Source: a virus (Duplodnaviria > Heunggongvirae > Uroviricota > Caudoviricetes). From it: DNA of 48,639 bases. The stretch lies in IMG/VR virus record IMGVR_UViG_2778261184_000002, positions 1 to 48,639 of that record, one strand, 5' to 3'. Of the stretch, positions 2,299 to 43,624 are shown piece by piece (position 1 is the first letter of the stretch; the number at the start of each line of letters is the position of its first letter). The translations under genes were made by a program, and so were the position numbers. A model generated the notes under the pieces. That model made no database searches and was not told the DNA's origin. It was given only the letters and a program-made list of their open reading frames with translations.

Positions 2299-2433
2299 AT
2301 GGATGTTATTCTAGAATTGTTAAAGCTTATTGATCTGTTTATGAACGCCTCATTGACCACTCAAATACTGGCGTCAATATTTTTGTTACTCTTCTACCTG
2401 GTATTGAGGGAGTTAACAAAGCTACTAATGTGA
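2299..2433 (+). CDS. Candidate 44-aa hydrophobic peptide (MDVILELLKLIDLFMNASLTTQILASIFLLLFYLVLRELTKLLM)
   Basis: ATG 2299 preceded by GGAG; single predicted TM helix; AT-rich; abuts the 3' end of the convergent 217-aa gene. Too short for the ORF track. Confidence 0.25.
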   Translation: MDVILELLKLIDLFMNASLTTQILASIFLLLFYLVLRELTKLLM

Positions 2434-3087
2434 TCAAAGTATCACGGTATCTTCATCAACTTCTTTCCCAGTCAGTGACTTTGGCTGGGAGGTGCCTGCT
2501 TTAACTTTTTCATGCCCAATAATGGACAGGAACGAAGCGAGTATGCCTGTTTTTTGCTCTTTCTCGACTGTACCGATCATCTGCTCTACGTAATCCGCAC
2601 TGGCAACGTTGTGGTATACGGTCGCGTAGCAACACAGGATCATCAAAATATGCTCCGGCCTGATATCCTGCCAGTTCACCCGGTAGACTTCTTCTCCGTT
2701 ACCATTGTATTCGGTATCAACGATAGAGTCGGGGATTTCGAAAGCACCTTTGTTATTTTGCGGCAGGGATAATAGTTTCTGGAGTTTTAACTCTCTGTAT
2801 CTTTCCATCCCGACGATGATTGCTGCTCTACCATCGGCATGACGGGTCTTGAGAGTCACCTGACTTGCTCCGGTGCCAGCGGAGATCGTTGGCGTAATTT
2901 CGTCTACCAGTACCTTAAATTTGCTTTTCCGCAGGGCTGCTATAGCTGGAGGAATTTTTTGCTTTTGCTCCAATGCTGACGCGGGAAGGGGTTTTACTTC
3001 GTTAATAATGAGAGCACCGTCTTTCAGTATTGCAGTGAGCATTTGAGGCTTGCTGGTGGTCAGGCTGAATATTGCGATCTTTTCCAT
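2434..3087 (-). CDS. Hypothetical protein (217 aa from the internal ATG)
   Basis: Track ORF 2434..3129; ATG at 3087 has a strong RBS (GGAGGAAGG) and the upstream 14 codons overlap a terminator-like hairpin. Confidence 0.5.
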   Translation of the reverse strand: MEKIAIFSLTTSKPQMLTAILKDGALIINEVKPLPASALEQKQKIPPAIAALRKSKFKVLVDEITPTISAGTGASQVTLKTRHADGRAAIIVGMERYRELKLQKLLSLPQNNKGAFEIPDSIVDTEYNGNGEEVYRVNWQDIRPEHILMILCCYATVYHNVASADYVEQMIGTVEKEQKTGILASFLSIIGHEKVKAGTSQPKSLTGKEVDEDTVIL

Positions 3088-3368: not shown

Positions 3369-4244
3369 GTGAGCAAAAACATATTTCCCAATCGTATTAT
3401 TAAAAAGTTATTCCGATTCAAATTACTGAAGACTGTTGGCGTTGCTCTTCTTCTGTCAAGTCATTCTGCGCTCGCGGATTATGGAAGAAACGCGGTTATA
3501 TCATGGGCTAATGAATACCAGAGCCAACATGGCGCAATGAGCCTTTACTATGAATACAACAGATACGGAGTTGATCCACAAGTGTATCTTATTCGTGAAA
3601 TTAATCGTGCGTGGCAATCTGGGGTGGTAGCCGCTCAACGTGGGCGAGTGATTAATGACGATGAAGCCTATGAGTATGGGTTGCGTCGGATACAGAGGCT
3701 TCGAATCAGCCAGGCGCTGGGGAATGATGTTACGCTATCCCTGACTAATCTGTGGGTTAAAGCGTTGCATGATGGCTGGAACTATGGAAATGCCAACAAT
3801 GGCAGTGTTACACAATCTTCAACGGCCTCTGCTGCAAGTAATAGCGCGCCAACGTTTTCCTGTAAGGTTGACGTAACATACCAAGGGAAGCGTAGTCATT
3901 ATATGGATGAAGCCGGGGCGTGGGATCAGGTAATTACAGACTATGGGACTTATTTCTCGTGGGATTTACCACGTGGCAACCGGGGTAATAGTACCGGGCA
4001 AGATGCATTTAGCGGAATGGATGAGACTCAACCAGTTCTGAACAATAAGCTGATACGCAAAGAGACAGAAAAGGATGGTAGCACGGTCGATGAATTTCGC
4101 ACTGAGGTTAGTTATGGCAGCGACCAGCCAGTTCATAAGTTTGTGTATGCTCGTCGCATAAAACCGAATGGTATTCGTGAATATTATGTTACTGATTTAA
4201 CGGACAAACGTGCGTTTATGTTCCTGAATTGTCAGCAGGACTAG
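3369..4244 (+). CDS. Secreted/periplasmic hypothetical protein
   Basis: 291-aa ORF, GTG start, N-terminal signal-peptide-like segment (LLKTVGVALLLSSHSALA-DYG). Confidence 0.5.
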   Translation: MSKNIFPNRIIKKLFRFKLLKTVGVALLLSSHSALADYGRNAVISWANEYQSQHGAMSLYYEYNRYGVDPQVYLIREINRAWQSGVVAAQRGRVINDDEAYEYGLRRIQRLRISQALGNDVTLSLTNLWVKALHDGWNYGNANNGSVTQSSTASAASNSAPTFSCKVDVTYQGKRSHYMDEAGAWDQVITDYGTYFSWDLPRGNRGNSTGQDAFSGMDETQPVLNNKLIRKETEKDGSTVDEFRTEVSYGSDQPVHKFVYARRIKPNGIREYYVTDLTDKRAFMFLNCQQD

Positions 4245-4280
4245 TAAATTAAAGCCCCGACCTGGCCGGGGCAACAGTAA

Positions 4281-4532
4281 TCAACTAACAATCCAGTCCA
4301 TAGCAACCATATCCTCTGGCGCTAAATCAATAGCATGGATTTTCCCATTCCGGATAGTGCGCCAGTGCTTTCGTGATCCGCCTTCTTGCCATACCCATAC
4401 ACCTTCAGACCATGATGCGCGACGACACACTGTTGCATATCCACTTCTGATCTTCTCTCTGGCTGTATGCAGTGACAGATTATCTTTTGGGATTTCCGGT
4501 AAAGGATGGTGGATTGCCTGAAACATCCCCAT
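4281..4532 (-). CDS. DUF2829-like small protein (Tad2-type fold candidate)
   Basis: 83 aa; V-x-RR-x-(S/A)-W near N-terminus (VCRRASWSEGVWVW) and D-W-I/E-V at C-terminus (MDWIVS), shared with four other ORFs in the window. Confidence 0.5.
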   Translation of the reverse strand: MGMFQAIHHPLPEIPKDNLSLHTAREKIRSGYATVCRRASWSEGVWVWQEGGSRKHWRTIRNGKIHAIDLAPEDMVAMDWIVS

Positions 4533-4534
4533 CT

Positions 4535-4714
4535 TTAATTGAGGATCTCCATCGCATCAAGAGTGAAGCGGGCAGCAAAAATGCAGGGGGTATCAGGAAG
4601 GTATGAGCGAGCTTCTGCTTCGGTAGCAGCCATGACGCAGATATACAGGTGTTTTTGGCAGGAATAGAAACGCCAGATAAATTCAGAATGAGTTGGGGTA
4701 GGGGTAGTAGCCAT
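4535..4714 (-). CDS. icd: Icd-like small protein (host cell-division-inhibitor family)
   Basis: 59-aa ORF not in track (MATTPTPTHSEFIWRFYSCQKHLYICVMAATEAEARSYLPDTPCIFAARFTLDAMEILN); RBS AAGGAGG; FIWRF...AATE-EAR signature shared with ORF 43041..43265; 2 nt upstream of the DUF2829 gene. Confidence 0.5.
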   Translation of the reverse strand: MATTPTPTHSEFIWRFYSCQKHLYICVMAATEAEARSYLPDTPCIFAARFTLDAMEILN

Positions 4715-4898
4715 AATGGCAGCCTCCTTTTGCTAATTTAAGGAGCTACCGCGTGAGGTTCCAATCTCAATGGCGGTAGCACTGACTGGGTTGGAACTAC
4801 CGGCGCAAAAGGGAACCGGCCTGCCTTTCGGCAGCCCAGCCAGCACTACCATTGATCTCTGAGCTAAACGCTACGTATGGCTGTGCGATGGCATGACA

Positions 4899-4921
4899 CA
4901 AAAAAAGACGCTTTCGGCGTC
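4899..4921 (-). terminator. Rho-independent terminator (minus strand)
   Basis: GACGC-tttcg-GCGTC hairpin followed on the minus strand by T7. Confidence 0.5.
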
Positions 4922-5028
4922 TGTGTCGCCTTTTGCATTATCCGGGGTTCCAATCCCGGCACCCGTTTTTCTAAGGTGCCGTAGAAATATACCCCACGAT
5001 AATGCCAGGGCGCAACTGTGTGTTTTCT

Positions 5029-5195
5029 TATGCTTTTCTTTTCTTCTTCCGGGATTGCTTGCAGGCGTAGGCCATTGCTTTAGCTTTCACTTCATCCAGC
5101 TTTCCGGTGATCACTTCTTTACCAAGAGTGACAAACCAGTCATAGCAACCGCCAGTTATGTTCTGGATTTGAAAGTTAAGGTAGCGAACGGTCAT
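5029..5195 (-). CDS. Candidate 55-aa basic-tailed small protein (MTVRYLNFQIQNITGGCYDWFVTLGKEVITGKLDEVKAKAMAYACKQSRKKKRKA)
   Basis: RBS GGAGGGAG 7 nt upstream; preceded by a 31-aa ORF overlapping via ATGA; followed by terminator 4899-4921. Confidence 0.25.
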
Positions 5196-5335
5196 TTTGA
5201 TACTCCCTCCAGTTTTGATGGGAGCAAAGAACGCAGGTTATTGCGTGAGTAGACGGTGAGTGATGGGAAAAGTTTGTAATTGTTCATAGTGACTCCTTGC
5301 TTTCGAAGCCGTCACAGACTGTTCCACGGTCTGGT

Positions 5336-5402
5336 GGCGGCGCAATACAGGTTGGAACACCGTGAGTCAACGGGGGCTTTTAGCCACCTGTATTGCGCTG
5401 CC
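5336..5402 (-). ncRNA. Candidate c4-like structured RNA (long hairpin) upstream of the icd-like gene
   Basis: GCGCAATACAGGT (5340-5352) pairs perfectly with ACCTGTATTGCGC (5386-5398) around a 33-nt loop; shares CAGGTGG with the structured region upstream of the second icd-like gene. Confidence 0.3.
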
Positions 5403-5516
5403 ATAACTATGACATTGGCAATCATACGAAATCCCTGGGGGTTTGTCTCGTTATGTTGACCAGTGGTCCAATCCAATCAAAATGTACAATCAATGAATTT
5501 ATAACTCAACATAAAA

Positions 5517-5533
5517 TGTTAGAAAATTAATTC
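5517..5533 (+). promoter_or_regulatory. Operator-like 17-bp motif copy (TGTTAGAAAATTAATTC)
   Basis: One of at least 14 copies of consensus TGTTAGAAAATTAATTT. Confidence 0.45.
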
Positions 5534-6105
5534 ATCATTTCTTGCACCGTCTGATAGAGCGTCATCTCTTCGGCATTGTGCCGTATAAAATCTGCTTTCC
5601 CGCCTATTTTTCCATCAGCATGAACAGGAACCAACCAGGGATATTGTTCGCGGATCTCTGCTGGCGCTGCGTGCTGGTGGTGCCATTTACACAAAGGGAG
5701 AACGTATTTATGGGCATCTTTAGCCGTTCTGCCAAATATGTGGTGGAGAGATACGACAGGGCTATGCTTCCCGTGAAGATGGCAGGCAATACAGGGGATT
5801 TTGCCTATAGCGTCCTGTATCCGGCGCTCTTCTGCTGTGAGTGATCTCCCTTTTAATCCGCGTGACGTGCGCGTTTTTTTGGGGAGGGCAGACGCCGCTC
5901 TCTCTCTTCTGCGCTGTTCACTTTGCCTCGCTTTTTCAAGTTTCTTTTGACGATATTCAGGCGATGCGGCTTTTTCCCTTGCGCGTTGCTGCTGGCGTTG
6001 AGCCTGCTGAAGACGTTTTGCCCTTTGCTCTTCCCGCCATTCCGGATCAGCCAGTTTTTGCATGGCTTTTTGTCTCTGTTTCTCCCAATAACTCTGTCTC
6101 TGCAT
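5527..6105 (-). CDS. ref: Ref-like HNH endonuclease (P1 recombination enhancement function family)
   Basis: 192 aa; highly charged R/Q/E/K-rich N-terminal ~80 aa followed by HNH-type motif CIACHLHG...SLHHIFGRT...LPLCKWHHQ; operator-like site upstream, as for P1 ref. Confidence 0.7.
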   Translation of the reverse strand: MQRQSYWEKQRQKAMQKLADPEWREEQRAKRLQQAQRQQQRAREKAASPEYRQKKLEKARQSEQRRRERAASALPKKTRTSRGLKGRSLTAEERRIQDAIGKIPCIACHLHGKHSPVVSLHHIFGRTAKDAHKYVLPLCKWHHQHAAPAEIREQYPWLVPVHADGKIGGKADFIRHNAEEMTLYQTVQEMMN

Positions 6106-6152: not shown

Positions 6153-6182
6153 TGTTAGATATTCAAAATTGATTTTCTAACA
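6153..6182 (-). promoter_or_regulatory. 30-bp composite operator-like site (TGTTAGAAAATCAATT-N7-TCTAACA on minus strand)
   Basis: Full motif plus inverted TGTTAGA half-site at fixed 23-nt offset; upstream of ref-like gene. Confidence 0.5.
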
Positions 6183-28964: not shown

Positions 28965-29040
28965 TGGTGGCCCCTACCGGATTTGAACCGATGACCGTGC
29001 GATTATGAGTCGCCTGCTCTAACCACTGAGCTAAGGGGCC
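28965..29040 (-). tRNA. tRNA-Ile (anticodon CAU, lysidine-type ileX-like)
   Basis: GGCCCCTTAGCTCAGTGGTTAGAGCAGGCGACTCATAATCGC...GGTTCAAATCC...GGGGCCACCA; clean cloverleaf, encoded CCA. Confidence 0.9.
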
Positions 29041-30034: not shown

Positions 30035-30110
30035 TGGTGCCGATTAACGGACTCGAACCGCTGACATCCTGCTTACAAGGCAGGCGCTCTACCAACTGAG
30101 CTAAACCGGC
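30035..30110 (-). tRNA. tRNA-Thr (anticodon UGU)
   Basis: GCCGGTTTAGCTCAGTTGGTAGAGCGCCTGCCTTGTAAGCAGG...GGTTCGAGTCC...ATCGGCACCA. Confidence 0.9.
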
Positions 30111-30112
30111 AT

Positions 30113-30189
30113 TGGCGATGGTGGGTGGATTCGAACCACCGACCGACAGCTTAGAAGGCTGCTGCTCTATCCTACTGAGCTACACCATC
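30113..30189 (-). tRNA. tRNA-Arg (anticodon UCU; reads rare AGA/AGG)
   Basis: GATGGTGTAGCTCAGTAGGATAGAGCAGCAGCCTTCTAAGCTGT...GGTGGTTCGAATCCACC-CACCATC-G-CCA. Confidence 0.9.
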
Positions 30190-42136: not shown

Positions 42137-42337
42137 TCAATTCACGATCCAATCATTACCGACTATATCAGCCGTCGATAAATCAACTTCCCGGATCTGG
42201 AGTCCATTAATACAAAACCATCCGGTAGTAGAGTAATTATCAGGCCAGGCCCATACACCAACACTCCATGCTTTACGGCGGCACACTTCAGCCTGTCCTT
42301 CCCTGATTTTTTTTACCGCCTGCATGATGTCCATCAC
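42137..42337 (-). CDS. DUF2829-like small protein
   Basis: 66 aa; VCRRKAWSVGVWAW ... NDWIVN. Confidence 0.5.
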   Translation of the reverse strand: MMDIMQAVKKIREGQAEVCRRKAWSVGVWAWPDNYSTTGWFCINGLQIREVDLSTADIVGNDWIVN

Positions 42338-43040
42338 TCACCTCCCCAACCGATCACCTGGAATTGCCCCATTTTGGGGTGATACCAGCGTTTTCCTCGG
42401 TGTTCAGCCTCCGACATCATCCGGTTAAAAGCATTCATGAAGGGAGATAAGGCCACGATGGAACGACGCAACAATACCCCCTCTGGAGTTAAAAACTCAT
42501 GTGTATCGGTGGGGATCCGGTAAGCGTTAACCAGGTTGCGACATTTGGCTTCGGTCAGGCCGCATTTTGCCGCCAGCTGGCGGTAGCCAATGTAACCTTC
42601 CGGCATGTTGCCCTTCTTGATTTGCTCGACGGTTTCTACCACCTGGCTAACCTTTGACTCAACAACATGAAGCCGCTTTTGCTGCTGAACTGCATTTGCA
42701 GCCATTGCGGCGATCATCTCTATTTCGGTCAACGGCTGGCGTGCTTGTTCTTCCAGTTCGCGCCAGCGGTCCACCAGCCGGGCAGTAAACTCAGGACAAA
42801 GCTGTGCGACTACAATGATACTGTCTCGTTTGCCTTGCTCGTCGCTAAATCGGAACACCTGAATTAATCGAGAACGCCCCATTACATCTATTTTTGGTTC
42901 ATCCTCAATTTGAGGACGAACAATAACGCCGGATTCGGCTAATGTTTCAATGGTACGCTTCACATTGTCATGACGTTTTCCCACCAGCTCCGCGATCTCA
43001 ATGCTGGTCATTGATGGCTTTTCAAGAATGCAGATATCCA
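42334..43040 (-). CDS. Rha-family phage regulatory protein (antirepressor candidate)
   Basis: N-terminal TSIEIAELVGKRHDNVKRTIETL signature; start placed at ATG 43040, abutting icd-like stop. Confidence 0.6.
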
Positions 43041-43265
43041 TCAGTGTGCCTCCGCAATTCCGGGATTGGTAATATTGCGATACCAAGGATTAGTGTTTGG
43101 TTGTGATGAAGTAGAGAAACGGCCAGTCAGGACGCCATGTTGATCAGGGATCAGAGAACGGGCTTCTTTTTCAGTTGCGGCAATTGCGAAGTGATCGCAG
43201 TGTTTTTGCAGGGAGTGGAAACGCCAGATGAATTCTGGACGTGAGCAAGGATTGGCATTAACCAT
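43041..43265 (-). CDS. icd: Icd-like small protein
   Basis: EFIWRF...AIAATEKEARSLIP signature; followed directly by Rha/Ant-like gene, as icd-ant in P1 immI. Confidence 0.55.
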   Translation of the reverse strand: MVNANPCSRPEFIWRFHSLQKHCDHFAIAATEKEARSLIPDQHGVLTGRFSTSSQPNTNPWYRNITNPGIAEAH

Positions 43266-43267
43266 AG

Positions 43268-43400
43268 TTACGGCCTCACTAACAGGTTTAACAACCTGCT
43301 ACCCGCTGTCAAACAGGTGGCAGGACGTGACAGGGTTGACAGACTGGCGTTAGTGAAACCAGCAGGCCGAAGCCTCCCCATCACGCCCCACCATAATTCG
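43268..43400 (-). ncRNA. Candidate c4-like antisense/structured RNA region upstream of icd
   Basis: Nested inverted repeats (CCTCACTAAC/GTTAGTGAAA; CTGTCAA/TTGACAG; CAGGTGG) between operator-like site and icd start. Confidence 0.3.
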
Positions 43401-43594
43401 GGCGTAACGCGGTTTACGGACACAAAAATACCGCAATATCGGAAATCTGCGGTTGTCCGCACTAACATTCAGGCTGTCAAACCTGGTCGCAGAATTTGCT
43501 ACGACGGCATGAATATAAGCCTGAAAACATGGAAGATCAACTAAAAATTTCAGCAATGGATGACTTCAGTCGATGATGCAGATCATACATTCCG

Positions 43595-43624
43595 ATTTAG
43601 AAACGGCAAATTAATTTTCTAACA
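43595..43624 (-). promoter_or_regulatory. 30-bp composite operator-like site (TGTTAGAAAATTAATT-N7-TCTAAAT on minus strand)
   Basis: Upstream of the c4-like/icd/ant module, analogous to P1 Op51. Confidence 0.5.

Follow-up and report, generated by a model that had tools for sequence, protein, structure and literature searches.

The minus-strand locus 3′ of the Ref nuclease gene is very probably a second immI-like region of a D6-like phage-plasmid, in which two C4 antisense-RNA translation switches lie in tandem and the second switch has lost its antirepressor gene through a 722-bp deletion. It represents a known system in an ordinary, decayed copy, not a novel means of gating cargo genes. All elements of this region, module 2, lie on the minus strand at 4281-5532 of the window, the analysed 48,639-nt stretch of viral DNA (Table 1). 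Three C4-family RNAs were detected in the window, C4-1 (43313-43398) in a paralogous module, and C4-2 (4769-4856) and the sub-threshold C4-3 (5330-5408) in module 2. Six features listed in an initial annotation (an Icd-like ORF, the ORF downstream of it, a terminator, a 55-aa ORF, a hairpin and an operator motif) were all recovered, exactly or within 1-6 nt, and its proposal of a second icd-type module under a C4-type RNA was borne out by C4-2 (76.7 bits) together with the Icd-like ORF. That annotation contained neither C4-2 nor the IsrK RNA (4901-4979), though both lie inside its interval and are recognized by Rfam models. From the order of the elements, unit A would run from an operator and promoter(s) through C4-3 and a 31-aa leader ORF to an ATGA-coupled 55-aa ORF, and unit B from P_isrK through IsrK, with its a and b boxes and leaky terminator, through C4-2 and a second set of boxes over the icd Shine-Dalgarno sequence, to icd and a coupled ant.

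Table 1. Coordinates of the elements of module 2, listed in minus-strand order, and of the paralogous module 1 in the window.
Feature	Position	Strand	Description
Operator-like 16-mer	5517-5532	+	TGTTAGAAAATYAATT / TGTTAGAAAATTAATT; overlaps the ref stop codon (5527-5529), just upstream of the candidate promoters of the C4-3 unit
Candidate promoter by the operator	5481-5509	-	putative -35 TTGAGT (5509-5504), 17-nt spacer, -10 TACATT (5486-5481)
Leader boxes, possible a1/b1-type partners of C4-3	5455-5478	-	GAUUGGAUUGGACC (5478-5465), GGUCAAC (5461-5455)
Second promoter-like site	5421-5449	-	GAGACA-17-TATGAT, from the promoter scan; ends ~13 nt upstream of C4-3
C4-3, sub-threshold C4-family antisense RNA	5330-5408	-	16-17-bp outer stem, two small hairpins, a′ loop UUGACUCAC, b′ segment GUUCCAACC
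Candidate targets of C4-3	5290-5327	-	GUGGAAC (5327-5321) and, overlapping the Shine-Dalgarno AAGGAG (5298-5293) of the 31-aa ORF, GGAGUCA (5296-5290)
31-aa leader ORF	5192-5287	-	its stop and the 55-aa ORF start overlap (ATGA)
55-aa basic protein ORF	5028-5195	-	cargo position of the C4-3 unit; phrog_7786, E 9e-42
Candidate P_isrK	4986-5015	-	putative -35 TTGCGC (5015-5010), 18-nt spacer, -10 TATATT (4991-4986), then 6 nt before IsrK begins at G4979
IsrK RNA	4901-4979	-	Rfam RF01394, 62.5 bits (cutoff 50)
C4-2, canonical C4 antisense RNA	4769-4856	-	Rfam RF01695, 76.7 bits (cutoff 45), E 2e-13, full model 1-87
C4-2 targets	4723-4765	-	b2 AUUGGAAC (4765-4758, hairpin loop); a2 GCAAAAGGAGG (4733-4723), containing the icd Shine-Dalgarno AAGGAGG
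Truncated Icd-like gene	4535-4714	-	59 aa (71 aa in D6); conserved core kept, tail lost at the deletion junction
Deletion junction	4536-4537	.	722 bp of D6 (L001 3295-4016) missing; 1-nt microhomology (BLAST, MAFFT against D6 and plasmid RL465)
ant 3′ remnant	4281-4532	-	last 83 codons of a 313-aa D6-type antirepressor
GC-rich terminator hairpin	4254-4272	.	8-bp stem with 7 GC pairs, then TTTAATTT (terminator scan)
Module 1, intact paralogue	42137-43624	-	operator 43609-43624, c4-a1b1 43466-43518, C4-1 43313-43398, icd 43041-43265, ant 42334-43086, 66-aa ORF 42137-42337

The initial annotation had assigned the switching of the 59-aa Icd-like ORF to the hairpin at 5330-5408. When the Rfam C4 search that it proposed was run, the canonical C4 RNA was located at 4769-4856 and the hairpin scored 39.7 bits, below the cutoff; the role belongs to the IsrK/C4 pair at 4769-4979, the loops of which match the boxes at the icd Shine-Dalgarno sequence. 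In IsrK, the b1 box (AUUGGAAC) sits in a hairpin loop (4954-4947), the a1 box (GCAAAAGG) lies at 4936-4929, and the rho-independent terminator, a stem at 4906-4922 followed by a T-run, is the one already noticed at 4899-4921. A sub-threshold c4-a1b1 match (22.4 bits) overlaps IsrK at 4939-4992, and the hexamer positions of the candidate P_isrK are kept in D6-like relatives and in phage JL22, in which the upstream context is otherwise unrelated. C4-2, with a fold energy of -46.4 kcal/mol, presents an a′ segment CCCUUUUGC (4813-4805) and a b′ segment GUUCCAAC (4797-4790); CCUUUUGC is complementary to GCAAAAGG(AGG) and GUUCCAA to UUGGAAC, and both boxes occur at 4723-4765 as well as inside IsrK. 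RNAduplex gave -15.6 (a′) and -9.7 (b′) kcal/mol for C4-2 on its targets, against -8.6 and -4.1 kcal/mol for the non-cognate C4-1. Three specificity types were found among the relatives, UUGGAAC/GCAAAAGG, UUGAGAC and UUGGUCU/GUCAAAGG, and in each type all six boxes (IsrK b1/a1, C4 b′/a′ and b2/a2) change together; among the relatives, L012 is of the specificity type of the window, and others carry different types. This co-variation supports regulation of the P1 immI or Gifsy-1 type; as comparative evidence it backs IsrK as the upstream copy of the target of a C4-type RNA, which ties IsrK of Gifsy-1 to immI of P1. The types, at least three, could serve as orthogonal RNA switches. For annotation, the regulator of icd is a canonical C4/IsrK pair, and the C4 RNA gene is overlapped by a 39-aa ORF at 4733-4852 that is annotated as 'ash family protein' (PF10554) in relatives.

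On the model of P1 immI and of IsrK in Gifsy-1, C4-2 would be cut from read-through transcripts, and its a′ loop and b′ segment would then pair with the a2 and b2 boxes. Pairing there would block translation of icd and, through coupling and polarity, of ant as well, and short IsrK, carrying the same boxes, would compete for C4-2 and open translation. P1 C4 is a stable RNA of ~77 nt, released by RNase P from a longer transcript. The two models differ in detail, C4 acting as the repressor in the P1 model and IsrK opening an inactive mRNA fold in the Gifsy-1 model, and unit B may follow either of them. In the window, this unit retains its regulatory RNAs intact and ends in a truncated Icd and an 83-aa C-terminal Ant stub, with the antirepressor gone.

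The locus shares with the immI region of P1 and P7 (Op51/P51, a1-b1, c4, a2-b2, icd, ant1/2) a C4-family RNA with two recognition segments, boxes both upstream of this RNA and over the Shine-Dalgarno sequence of an Icd-like leader coupled to an antirepressor, a putatively operator-controlled promoter beside a second candidate promoter, and a specificity set by a few box bases. It differs from immI in that its upstream boxes lie in an IsrK-type RNA with its own predicted promoter and terminator and not in a plain a1b1 leader, in having two tandem C4 units with ant deleted, and in recognition sequences unrelated to those of its own module 1. P4 immunity (seqA - CI RNA - seqC) also places a C4/CI-like RNA between complementary upstream and downstream sequences; P4 CI terminates transcription of replication genes, whereas in the window, as in P1, the downstream box lies over a ribosome binding site. 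Experiments on Gifsy-1 established transcription of the downstream genes from an isrK promoter, IsrK read-through, an ~80-nt processed RNA (STnc1160) and translational coupling to the antirepressor (PMC4825925), and the authors of that study likened IsrK to seqA and STnc1160 to CI of P4. As in isrK-orf45(STnc1160)-anrP of Gifsy-1 in Salmonella, an isrK RNA with a leaky terminator is followed by a conserved ~80-nt region of IsrK-complementary RNA and then by a coupled antirepressor gene. Unlike Gifsy-1, in which the RNA region is read as orf45, the window and the D6-like loci have a separate Icd-like gene between the C4-like RNA and ant, and the window is a plasmid prophage with its antirepressor cut to the last 83 codons; read-through from isrK would reach only these codons of ant, which is intact in the relatives. 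The order ref, orf86/85, isrK, C4, icd (orf83), ant (orf82) is that of D6 orf82-orf87 and the pYU39_89 region (NC_050154; PMC6799933), to which the locus shows 86.7% identity, and a second region with c4 and icd in D6-like plasmid prophages (pYU39_89) had already been published (PMC6799933); the annotated features of the D6 record do not include the IsrK and C4 RNAs. The window departs from D6 by the missing 722 bp (icd tail and Ant residues 1-230) and by its b box, UUGGAAC against UUGAGAC in D6.

The Icd-like ORF at 4535-4714 was confirmed by matches to NCBIfam NF033153 (50.9 bits, cutoff 25, positions 1-47 of 48) and phrog_1426 (E 3e-34, positions 1-59 of 73). The gene next to it had been labelled DUF2829; an 83-aa ORF does start 2 nt after the icd stop, but the label was not confirmed (Pfam PF11195, E 2.4, 9.2 bits, cutoff 25) and the ORF is an ant stub. 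Its product showed 87% identity to residues 231-313 of D6 Ant and of a 313-aa representative and matched phrog_63 'anti-repressor Ant' at profile positions 379-431 of 431 only, so that the N-terminal Rha/Bro-type and central Ant regions of Ant/Rha proteins lie outside the retained residues. The 722-bp deletion took the last 12 codons of Icd and the first 230 codons of Ant; the junction creates the icd stop codon TAA, which ends Icd at codon 59 and is followed by AG and then by an internal Met codon of Ant. The initial annotation had described a module without an ant gene. The gene is indeed lost, but by one deletion relative to D6 and the compared D6-like plasmids and not by a designed exchange of cargo. 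As the word-indexed homologue searches returned close relatives only (7, 16 and 3 clusters), and a full HMMER scan matched the 83-aa ORF to only 6 of 1.84 billion representatives, no deep alignment was possible.

The module was found in 347 plasmid and 323 E. coli records, and all of them among the matches listed carry ~700 bp more than the window; likewise, all 25 of the 25 IMG/VR loci holding both flanks had a gap of 713-732 bp with ant intact. A 120-nt junction probe found no site with at least 80% coverage in 72,556 plasmids (PLSDB) or in 20,395 E. coli records (RefSeq complete). That none of the complete plasmids and complete E. coli genomes in the search has the junction is what would be seen if the missing ant were an assembly artefact of the window. 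Exact-protein look-ups, however, located the allele on at least 19 draft and SRA contigs from several samples, including independent NCBI draft genomes and SRA assemblies, which ruled out a deletion private to the window; these contigs are 100% nucleotide-identical from isrK to the gene for a 291-aa protein, their upstream flanks are recombinant, with two different upstream backgrounds, and the junction is flanked by just a 1-nt microhomology and no repeat that could collapse. An artefact is therefore extremely improbable, and the identical junction on at least 19 contigs with recombinant flanks points to a real single event. Since the allele is absent from PLSDB and the RefSeq complete E. coli genomes, it is rare; since it occurs in several samples and on two upstream backgrounds, it is tolerated and could be selected, and 'decay' alone does not explain this spread.

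Loss of ant would have been selected if the module now served immunity only, C4-2 and IsrK still silencing icd-ant of incoming relatives of the same type with no induction through the module's own second antirepressor. Citron and Schuster are said to have found in 1990 that P1 C4 acts in trans on a superinfecting phage. Immunity in trans would have targets, as relatives of the same type (L012) and of different types exist, and IsrK, C4-2 and the boxes show 100% conservation across all the contigs with the deletion, an allele that spans several samples and two upstream backgrounds. Another relative (L016) has inactivated its module in a different manner, by loss of C4 and mutation of the icd start to ATC, which suggests that the Ant of module 2 is often dispensable; the same is hinted at by a lineage that circulates without the second antirepressor. 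Identity of the RNAs among the contigs, however, may only reflect a recent event, and the rarity of the allele in complete genomes and plasmids also speaks against selection, so that an immunity-only function is possible but doubtful. The biological value of the findings on module 2 is modest.

A second alternative is that the module was built for its present content, a functional stand-alone DUF2829/Tad2-like cargo (anti-Thoeris sponge-like) translated by coupling to the truncated icd. Both Ant genes of the window have a small W-rich domain, either fused or following, and this domain stands alone in module 2 downstream of IsrK/C4: the ORF at 4281-4532 is intact, with its ATG 2 nt after the icd stop, the same domain is encoded separately by the 66-aa gene after ant in module 1, and stand-alone proteins of 68 aa and 96 aa occur elsewhere. 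The five best Foldseek PDB matches of the 83-aa model were all Tad2 structures, yet with E 0.17-0.9 and TM ~0.4 on an AF2 model of pLDDT 63; the 66-aa paralogue, which aligned end to end with the Pfam Tad2-like family at E 0.04, gave a somewhat better model (pLDDT 69) and no Tad2 match. Pfam scores were 9.2 bits (83 aa) and 14.9 bits (66 aa) against a cutoff of 25, and a profile search of PDB sequences gave no Tad2, so that the Tad2/DUF2829 label was not confirmed in any of five tests (Pfam, NCBIfam, PDB sequence profile, and two AF2 models with Foldseek). The first ~20 residues of the 83-aa product are Ant linker, with pLDDT below 50 over residues 1-15, its ATG is preceded by no Shine-Dalgarno sequence, and in every compared relative with icd and the ant 3′ end retained the sequence is the fused C-terminus of Ant. 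A useful cargo would suit the persistence of the allele, which is seen on at least 19 contigs with two recombinant backgrounds, but the deletion contigs are nucleotide-identical across the region; the allele therefore goes back to a single event and bears no sign that selection recurred. A purpose-built cargo module is thus unlikely, and the 83-aa ORF is better read as the stub of ant.

Unit A begins at the operator-like motif that the initial annotation had placed at 5517-5533. As a 16-mer (5517-5532) it belongs to a family with 11 copies in the window at ≤3 mismatches, compared with 1.29 expected, a number reached by none of 100 shuffles, and each of the 11 is located either outside ORFs of ≥90 aa or at the end of a gene. 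Exact copies are also located upstream of ref (6167-6182) and of module 1 (43609-43624), and the copy at 5517-5532 is kept in relatives. The 16-mer is presumed to be a C1-type operator, C1 binding being our assumption by analogy with Op51 of P1 and the ref operator; operators of this type in P1-like phages are asymmetric ~17-bp sites that recur at immunity and early promoters and are bound by C1, and the 16-mer resembles the P1 consensus only in the half-site AATTnATT. The candidate promoter beside it was not listed by the promoter scan because only 8 of 12 consensus positions match; both hexamer positions are kept in D6-like relatives, with a variable spacer. The second promoter-like site is also kept in relatives, and the pair resembles P51b/P51a of P1. 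Between the two candidate promoters lie leader boxes, which gave -10.6 (b′) and -10.4 (a′) kcal/mol with C4-3 in RNAduplex, a weak pairing that is nevertheless the best among the three C4 RNAs; their region is only 67% identical to D6.

The perfect 13-bp stem reported at 5336-5402 is present and forms the outer stem of the C4-like fold at 5330-5408(-), C4-3, which matched Rfam RF01695 over the full model (1-87) with 39.7 bits and E 1.5e-5, below the cutoff of 45; its second hairpin loop has 6 nt, compared with 12 in the C4 model. The surrounding 239 nt (5288-5526) fold with z = -3.5 relative to shuffles. The sub-threshold score leaves room for a structural or terminator element at the ref end that is not of C4 type and does not regulate the small ORFs downstream. 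As C4-3 orthologues are nearly invariant, with only six sequence variants across ~40 loci, the covariation test of the stem failed: the six variants showed single-side changes, with a mismatch in the window's own stem, and no compensatory double changes. The predicted pairing with the Shine-Dalgarno sequence of the 31-aa ORF is also short, the candidate targets being complementary to b′ and to a′ over 6 nt each; a′ matches that Shine-Dalgarno sequence over ~6 nt only, and RNAduplex prefers another register. Against the non-C4 reading, the full C4 model was matched in five loci, the orthologues in D6, L039, L023 and L044 scoring 38-43 bits, and a terminator of ref was ruled out, as the stem has no U-tract 3′ of it and the C4 model is matched at full length. 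C4-3 is 91% identical to D6, although its flanks, the adjacent leader (67%) and the 31-aa ORF (75%), are less conserved; the candidate target segment (5290-5327) shows 90.5% identity. In L023 and L044, moreover, C4-3 is followed by an Icd-like gene exactly as a canonical C4 is, and the layout of an operator with two promoter-like sites mirrors module 1. Hence a non-C4 element is quite improbable, and C4-3 is treated here as a sub-threshold member of the C4 family.

The Icd-like gene of L023 and L044 is a full-length one (61 aa, PGAP-annotated), located at the position of the 31-aa ORF and followed by the 55-aa ORF. The 31-aa ORF, which has in-frame indels among relatives and only 75% nucleotide identity to D6, gave no family match and no Icd match in Pfam, NCBIfam and PHROG searches of the window ORFs, and it may be a decayed icd. 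The 55-aa basic ORF, first placed at 5029-5195, is real (5028-5195(-)), conserved and matched by phrog_7786; in 32 IMG/VR loci the protein shows 91-98% identity. Homologues fall into 16 clusters, every one of them named 'hypothetical' and nearly all from E. coli or Salmonella records, many on ~90-kb contigs; Pfam and NCBIfam gave no match above cutoff, and a scan of genome contigs with the 55-aa protein found no relative. The initial annotation had suggested that C4-like switches gate more than one cargo gene. This is supported in so far as its hairpin is C4-like and precedes a 55-aa ORF that is not ant, but the DUF2829 cargo it had in mind is the deletion stub of ant. The tandem C4-3 unit with its 55-aa cargo is, as far as we found, undescribed in the literature, although its kind is known. 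The wider proposal that C4 switches in D6-like phage-plasmids gate proteins other than antirepressors, with the 55-aa protein as a novel small effector restricted to these elements and the W-rich Ant-linked domain as a remote Tad2-like binder of an immune signal, is improbable; if true, the latter would link antirepressor modules to anti-defence.

In module 1, Rfam scores were 68.8 bits for C4 and 54.4 bits for c4-a1b1, and two tandem promoter-like sites lie downstream of the operator; a terminator after its a1b1 leader was considered and was not supported by the terminator scan. Its boxes (a, GUUAGUGA; b, UUGACAG) differ from those of module 2, making the recognition sequences orthogonal. The 66-aa protein at its end shows 43% identity (E 9e-19) to the 83-aa remnant of module 2. 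The terminator hairpin at 4254-4272, at the 3′ end of the module 2 operon, is shared with the convergent gene for the 291-aa protein (3369-4244, +) and is kept in D6 and RL465.

The relevant features of the interval are all minus-strand and are found downstream of the nuclease gene ref (see table). The Rfam C4 search proposed in the initial annotation was run over the whole window (cutoffs, 45 bits for C4 and 50 bits for IsrK) and identified a canonical C4 antisense RNA (C4-2) and an IsrK RNA, both of which had gone unnoticed within the interval. The internal terminator noted previously is real and belongs to the IsrK RNA. The 59-, 83- and 55-aa ORFs named earlier were all present in the sequence, and the Icd-like nature of the first was confirmed by NCBIfam and PHROGs; the family of the 55-aa product is conserved and of unknown function. 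The hairpin pointed out earlier matched the full C4 model at permissive thresholds (C4-3), and its orthologues in phage D6, L039, L023 and L044 (L numbers denote relative loci) scored 38–43 bits. It is therefore a real, though sub-threshold, C4-type candidate, located ahead of the 31-aa/55-aa ORF pair and not ahead of the icd ORF. Family tests were passed by C4-2, IsrK and Icd, and not by C4-3, the Tad2 label or Ant membership.

Features of the second icd region, its upstream unit and the paralogous module 1
Feature	Position	Strand	Evidence or remark
ref, Ref-type RecA-dependent nuclease gene	5527-6105	-	Pfam PF16786, E 3e-36
Operator-like 16-mer TGTTAGAAAATYAATT	5517-5532		
All 11 copies of the 16-mer (<=3 mismatches)	5517, 6167, 9672, 21636, 23037, 27514, 31256, 31412, 32662, 43609, 44815		
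Promoter candidate	5509-5481	-	conserved; downstream of operator
Promoter candidate	5449-5421	-	scan match; downstream of operator
Promoter-like site TTGACC-16-CAAAAT	5456-5483	+	
C4-3, third C4-like RNA	5330-5408	-	Rfam 39.7 bits, E 1.5e-5, full model, below cutoff
31-aa ORF (orf31)	5192-5287	-	AAGGAG ahead of start; ATGA overlap with 55-aa start
55-aa ORF	5028-5195	-	phrog_7786, E 9e-42
IsrK RNA	4901-4979	-	Rfam 62.5 bits
Terminator	stem 4906-4922 + T-run	-	terminator scan
C4-2, C4 antisense RNA	4769-4856	-	Rfam 76.7 bits
39-aa "ash family protein" ORF	4733-4852	-	PGAP name; also L002 3727-3846 and L047, L049, L050 1363-1482
Icd-like 59-aa ORF	4535-4714	-	NF033153, 50.9 bits (cutoff 25); phrog_1426, E 3e-34
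83-aa ORF	4281-4532	-	start 2 nt past stop of 59-aa ORF
c4-a1b1 leader, module 1	43466-43518	-	Rfam
C4-1, module 1	43313-43398	-	Rfam C4
ant, module 1	42334-43086	-	protein ends ...RWYHPKMGQFQ
66-aa gene, module 1	42137-42337	-	after ant
Three tRNA genes	28968-29040, 30038-30110, 30116-30189	-	Rfam 67-73 bits

The 39-aa ORF named by PGAP (Pfam PF10554, Phage_ASH) lies almost wholly within the C4-2 gene, so the "ash family" protein may, at least here, be the translation of a conserved RNA; it resembles "orf45" of Gifsy-1, in which nucleotides but not amino acids are conserved (PMC4825925).

The closest phage, D6 (86.7% identity), carries ref, orf86, orf85, the RNAs, icd (orf83, 71 aa) and ant (orf82, 313 aa) in this order. 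Alignment revealed that 722 bp of D6 (L001 3295-4016) are absent from the window, and that the 83-aa ORF, starting at an internal Met, corresponds to Ant residues 231-313. Microhomology at the junction amounts to 1 nt, and the joining of the two ends created the icd stop codon. A full HMMER scan, in which the best representative (313 aa) was matched at 231-313, and PHROGs, in which the match covers the final 53 positions of the Ant profile, agree with this assignment. The gene had been called DUF2829, but the 83-aa ORF reached only 9.2 bits (E 2.4) with Pfam Tad2-like PF11195 (cutoff 25 bits), its 66-aa paralogue in module 1 reached 14.9 bits (E 0.04), and Tad2 was not found in a profile search of PDB sequences. 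The best five Foldseek matches of the AF2 model of the 83-aa ORF (pLDDT 63) were all Tad2, but with E 0.17-0.9, and the paralogue, modelled at pLDDT 69, had no Tad2 match; at best, the label reflects a remote resemblance. For this ORF, the proposal that an ant-less module shows C4-like switches gating other cargo is based on a deletion stub; what holds is no more than the weaker point that a non-ant ORF follows C4-3.

The module is common in its intact form, occurring in 347 plasmid and 323 E. coli records; among the matches listed in these collections, each spans ~1,500 bp for an 800-bp query, and a 120-nt junction probe found no contiguous match in either. The gap between icd and the ant 3′ part is 713-732 bp in all 25 IMG/VR loci holding both flanks and a few bases in the window. 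In NCBI drafts and SRA assemblies, at least 19 contigs encode the exact 59-aa protein and at least 12 encode the exact 83-aa protein; the loss of ant is neither an artefact nor private to the window. From isrK through the neighbouring 291-aa gene, the contigs match the window at 100% identity, but their upstream segment is of either window or D6 type, indicating a single deletion event followed by recombination. We found no description of this allele in the literature. Contigs L003-L010 carry a further free-standing stub of this Ant C-terminus (81-83 aa, ~81% nucleotide identity), a short way downstream of a 342-aa Cre-like integrase and, in four of them (L007-L010), adjoined by a C1 repressor fragment; icd, C4 and IsrK are all absent there, and this remnant is independent and differently placed.

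The second hairpin loop of C4-2 exposes CCCUUUUGC, and the single-stranded segment after that loop exposes GUUCCAAC. Downstream, AUUGGAAC lies in a small hairpin loop (4765-4758) and GCAAAAGGAGG (4733-4723) includes the icd Shine-Dalgarno; both boxes recur in IsrK (4954-4947 and 4936-4929). The layout is repeated in module 1, whose boxes (UUGACAG and GUUAGUGA) are unrelated, and at the a′ sites cognate duplexes were clearly stronger than non-cognate ones. The strongest evidence for this wiring is comparative. Comparison of window 4715-4979 with six relatives revealed three specificity types with coordinated base changes: UUGGAAC with GCAAAAGG (window, L012), UUGAGAC (D6, phage JL22 [L043]) and UUGGUCU with GUCAAAGG (L039, L026, L011). 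As IsrK boxes, C4 segments and icd-leader boxes co-vary within every type, the comparison indicates that IsrK holds the upstream copy of the target for the C4-type RNA next to it and that the pairing is under selection; a sub-threshold c4-a1b1 match overlapping IsrK also favours this. Since their b boxes differ (UUGGAAC vs UUGAGAC), the second modules of the window and D6 should be hetero-specific. The system is proposed to work like P1 immI and Gifsy-1 IsrK. Gifsy-1 experiments, the experimental background for such wiring, demonstrated IsrK read-through, translational coupling to an antirepressor and a processed RNA of ~80 nt with complementarity to IsrK, and drew an explicit parallel with P4 seqA/CI; the IsrK/CI analogy is already published (PMC4825925), as is a second c4+icd region in D6-like plasmid prophages (PMC6799933). 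We found no published description of the three co-varying types. In L016 (IMG/VR, 2715-2910), the entire C4 RNA is gone, apparently by recombination between the GGGATTGGAACC boxes repeated in IsrK (b1) and after C4 (b2), and icd starts with ATC, not ATG, which amounts to another, independent means of disabling the module.

The operator-like motif noted earlier near 5517 was borne out as one of a family of 11 sites (1.29 expected), all outside ORFs >=90 aa or at gene ends. Exact copies lie upstream of ref and of module 1, one site precedes each immI-like region and two flank the 342-aa Cre-like integrase gene; the family is probably the C1 operator set of the element. The operator and two promoter candidates ahead of C4-3 mirror module 1, where the operator is likewise followed by two promoter-like sites. 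The plus-strand site, aimed into the ref 3′ end with the operator just downstream, could be an antisense transcript promoter or a chance match. Identity to D6 is ~91% in C4-3 and the next 42 nt, 67% in the leader and 75% in orf31. Because the stretch between ref and mat in L023 and L044 is limited to C4-3, a full Icd-like gene of 61 aa and a homologue of the 55-aa ORF, C4-3 appears to be the C4 of an independent icd-type module with the 55-aa protein as cargo, whose icd would have shrunk to a short leader ORF in D6-like elements. Present-day regulation by C4-3 is uncertain, as its Shine-Dalgarno pairing is short. We found no description of this third unit in the literature.

Module 1 is intact, with icd, ant and the 66-aa gene following C4 and the c4-a1b1 leader. 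A small W-rich domain accompanies both Ant genes, as a fusion to Ant in D6-type module 2 and as the separate 66-aa product of module 1 (43% identity), and the RWYHPKMG motif looks like a recombination or mosaic boundary. In JL22, a P1-like Punavirus, the same IsrK-C4 pair (96% identical; 2400-3012) lies between pacB and c1, ahead of the genes for an 81-aa Icd-like product and a 370-aa Roi-type protein, which it is predicted to drive. Given this other site and other cargo, the RNA module evidently changes both its cargo genes and its location in the genome.
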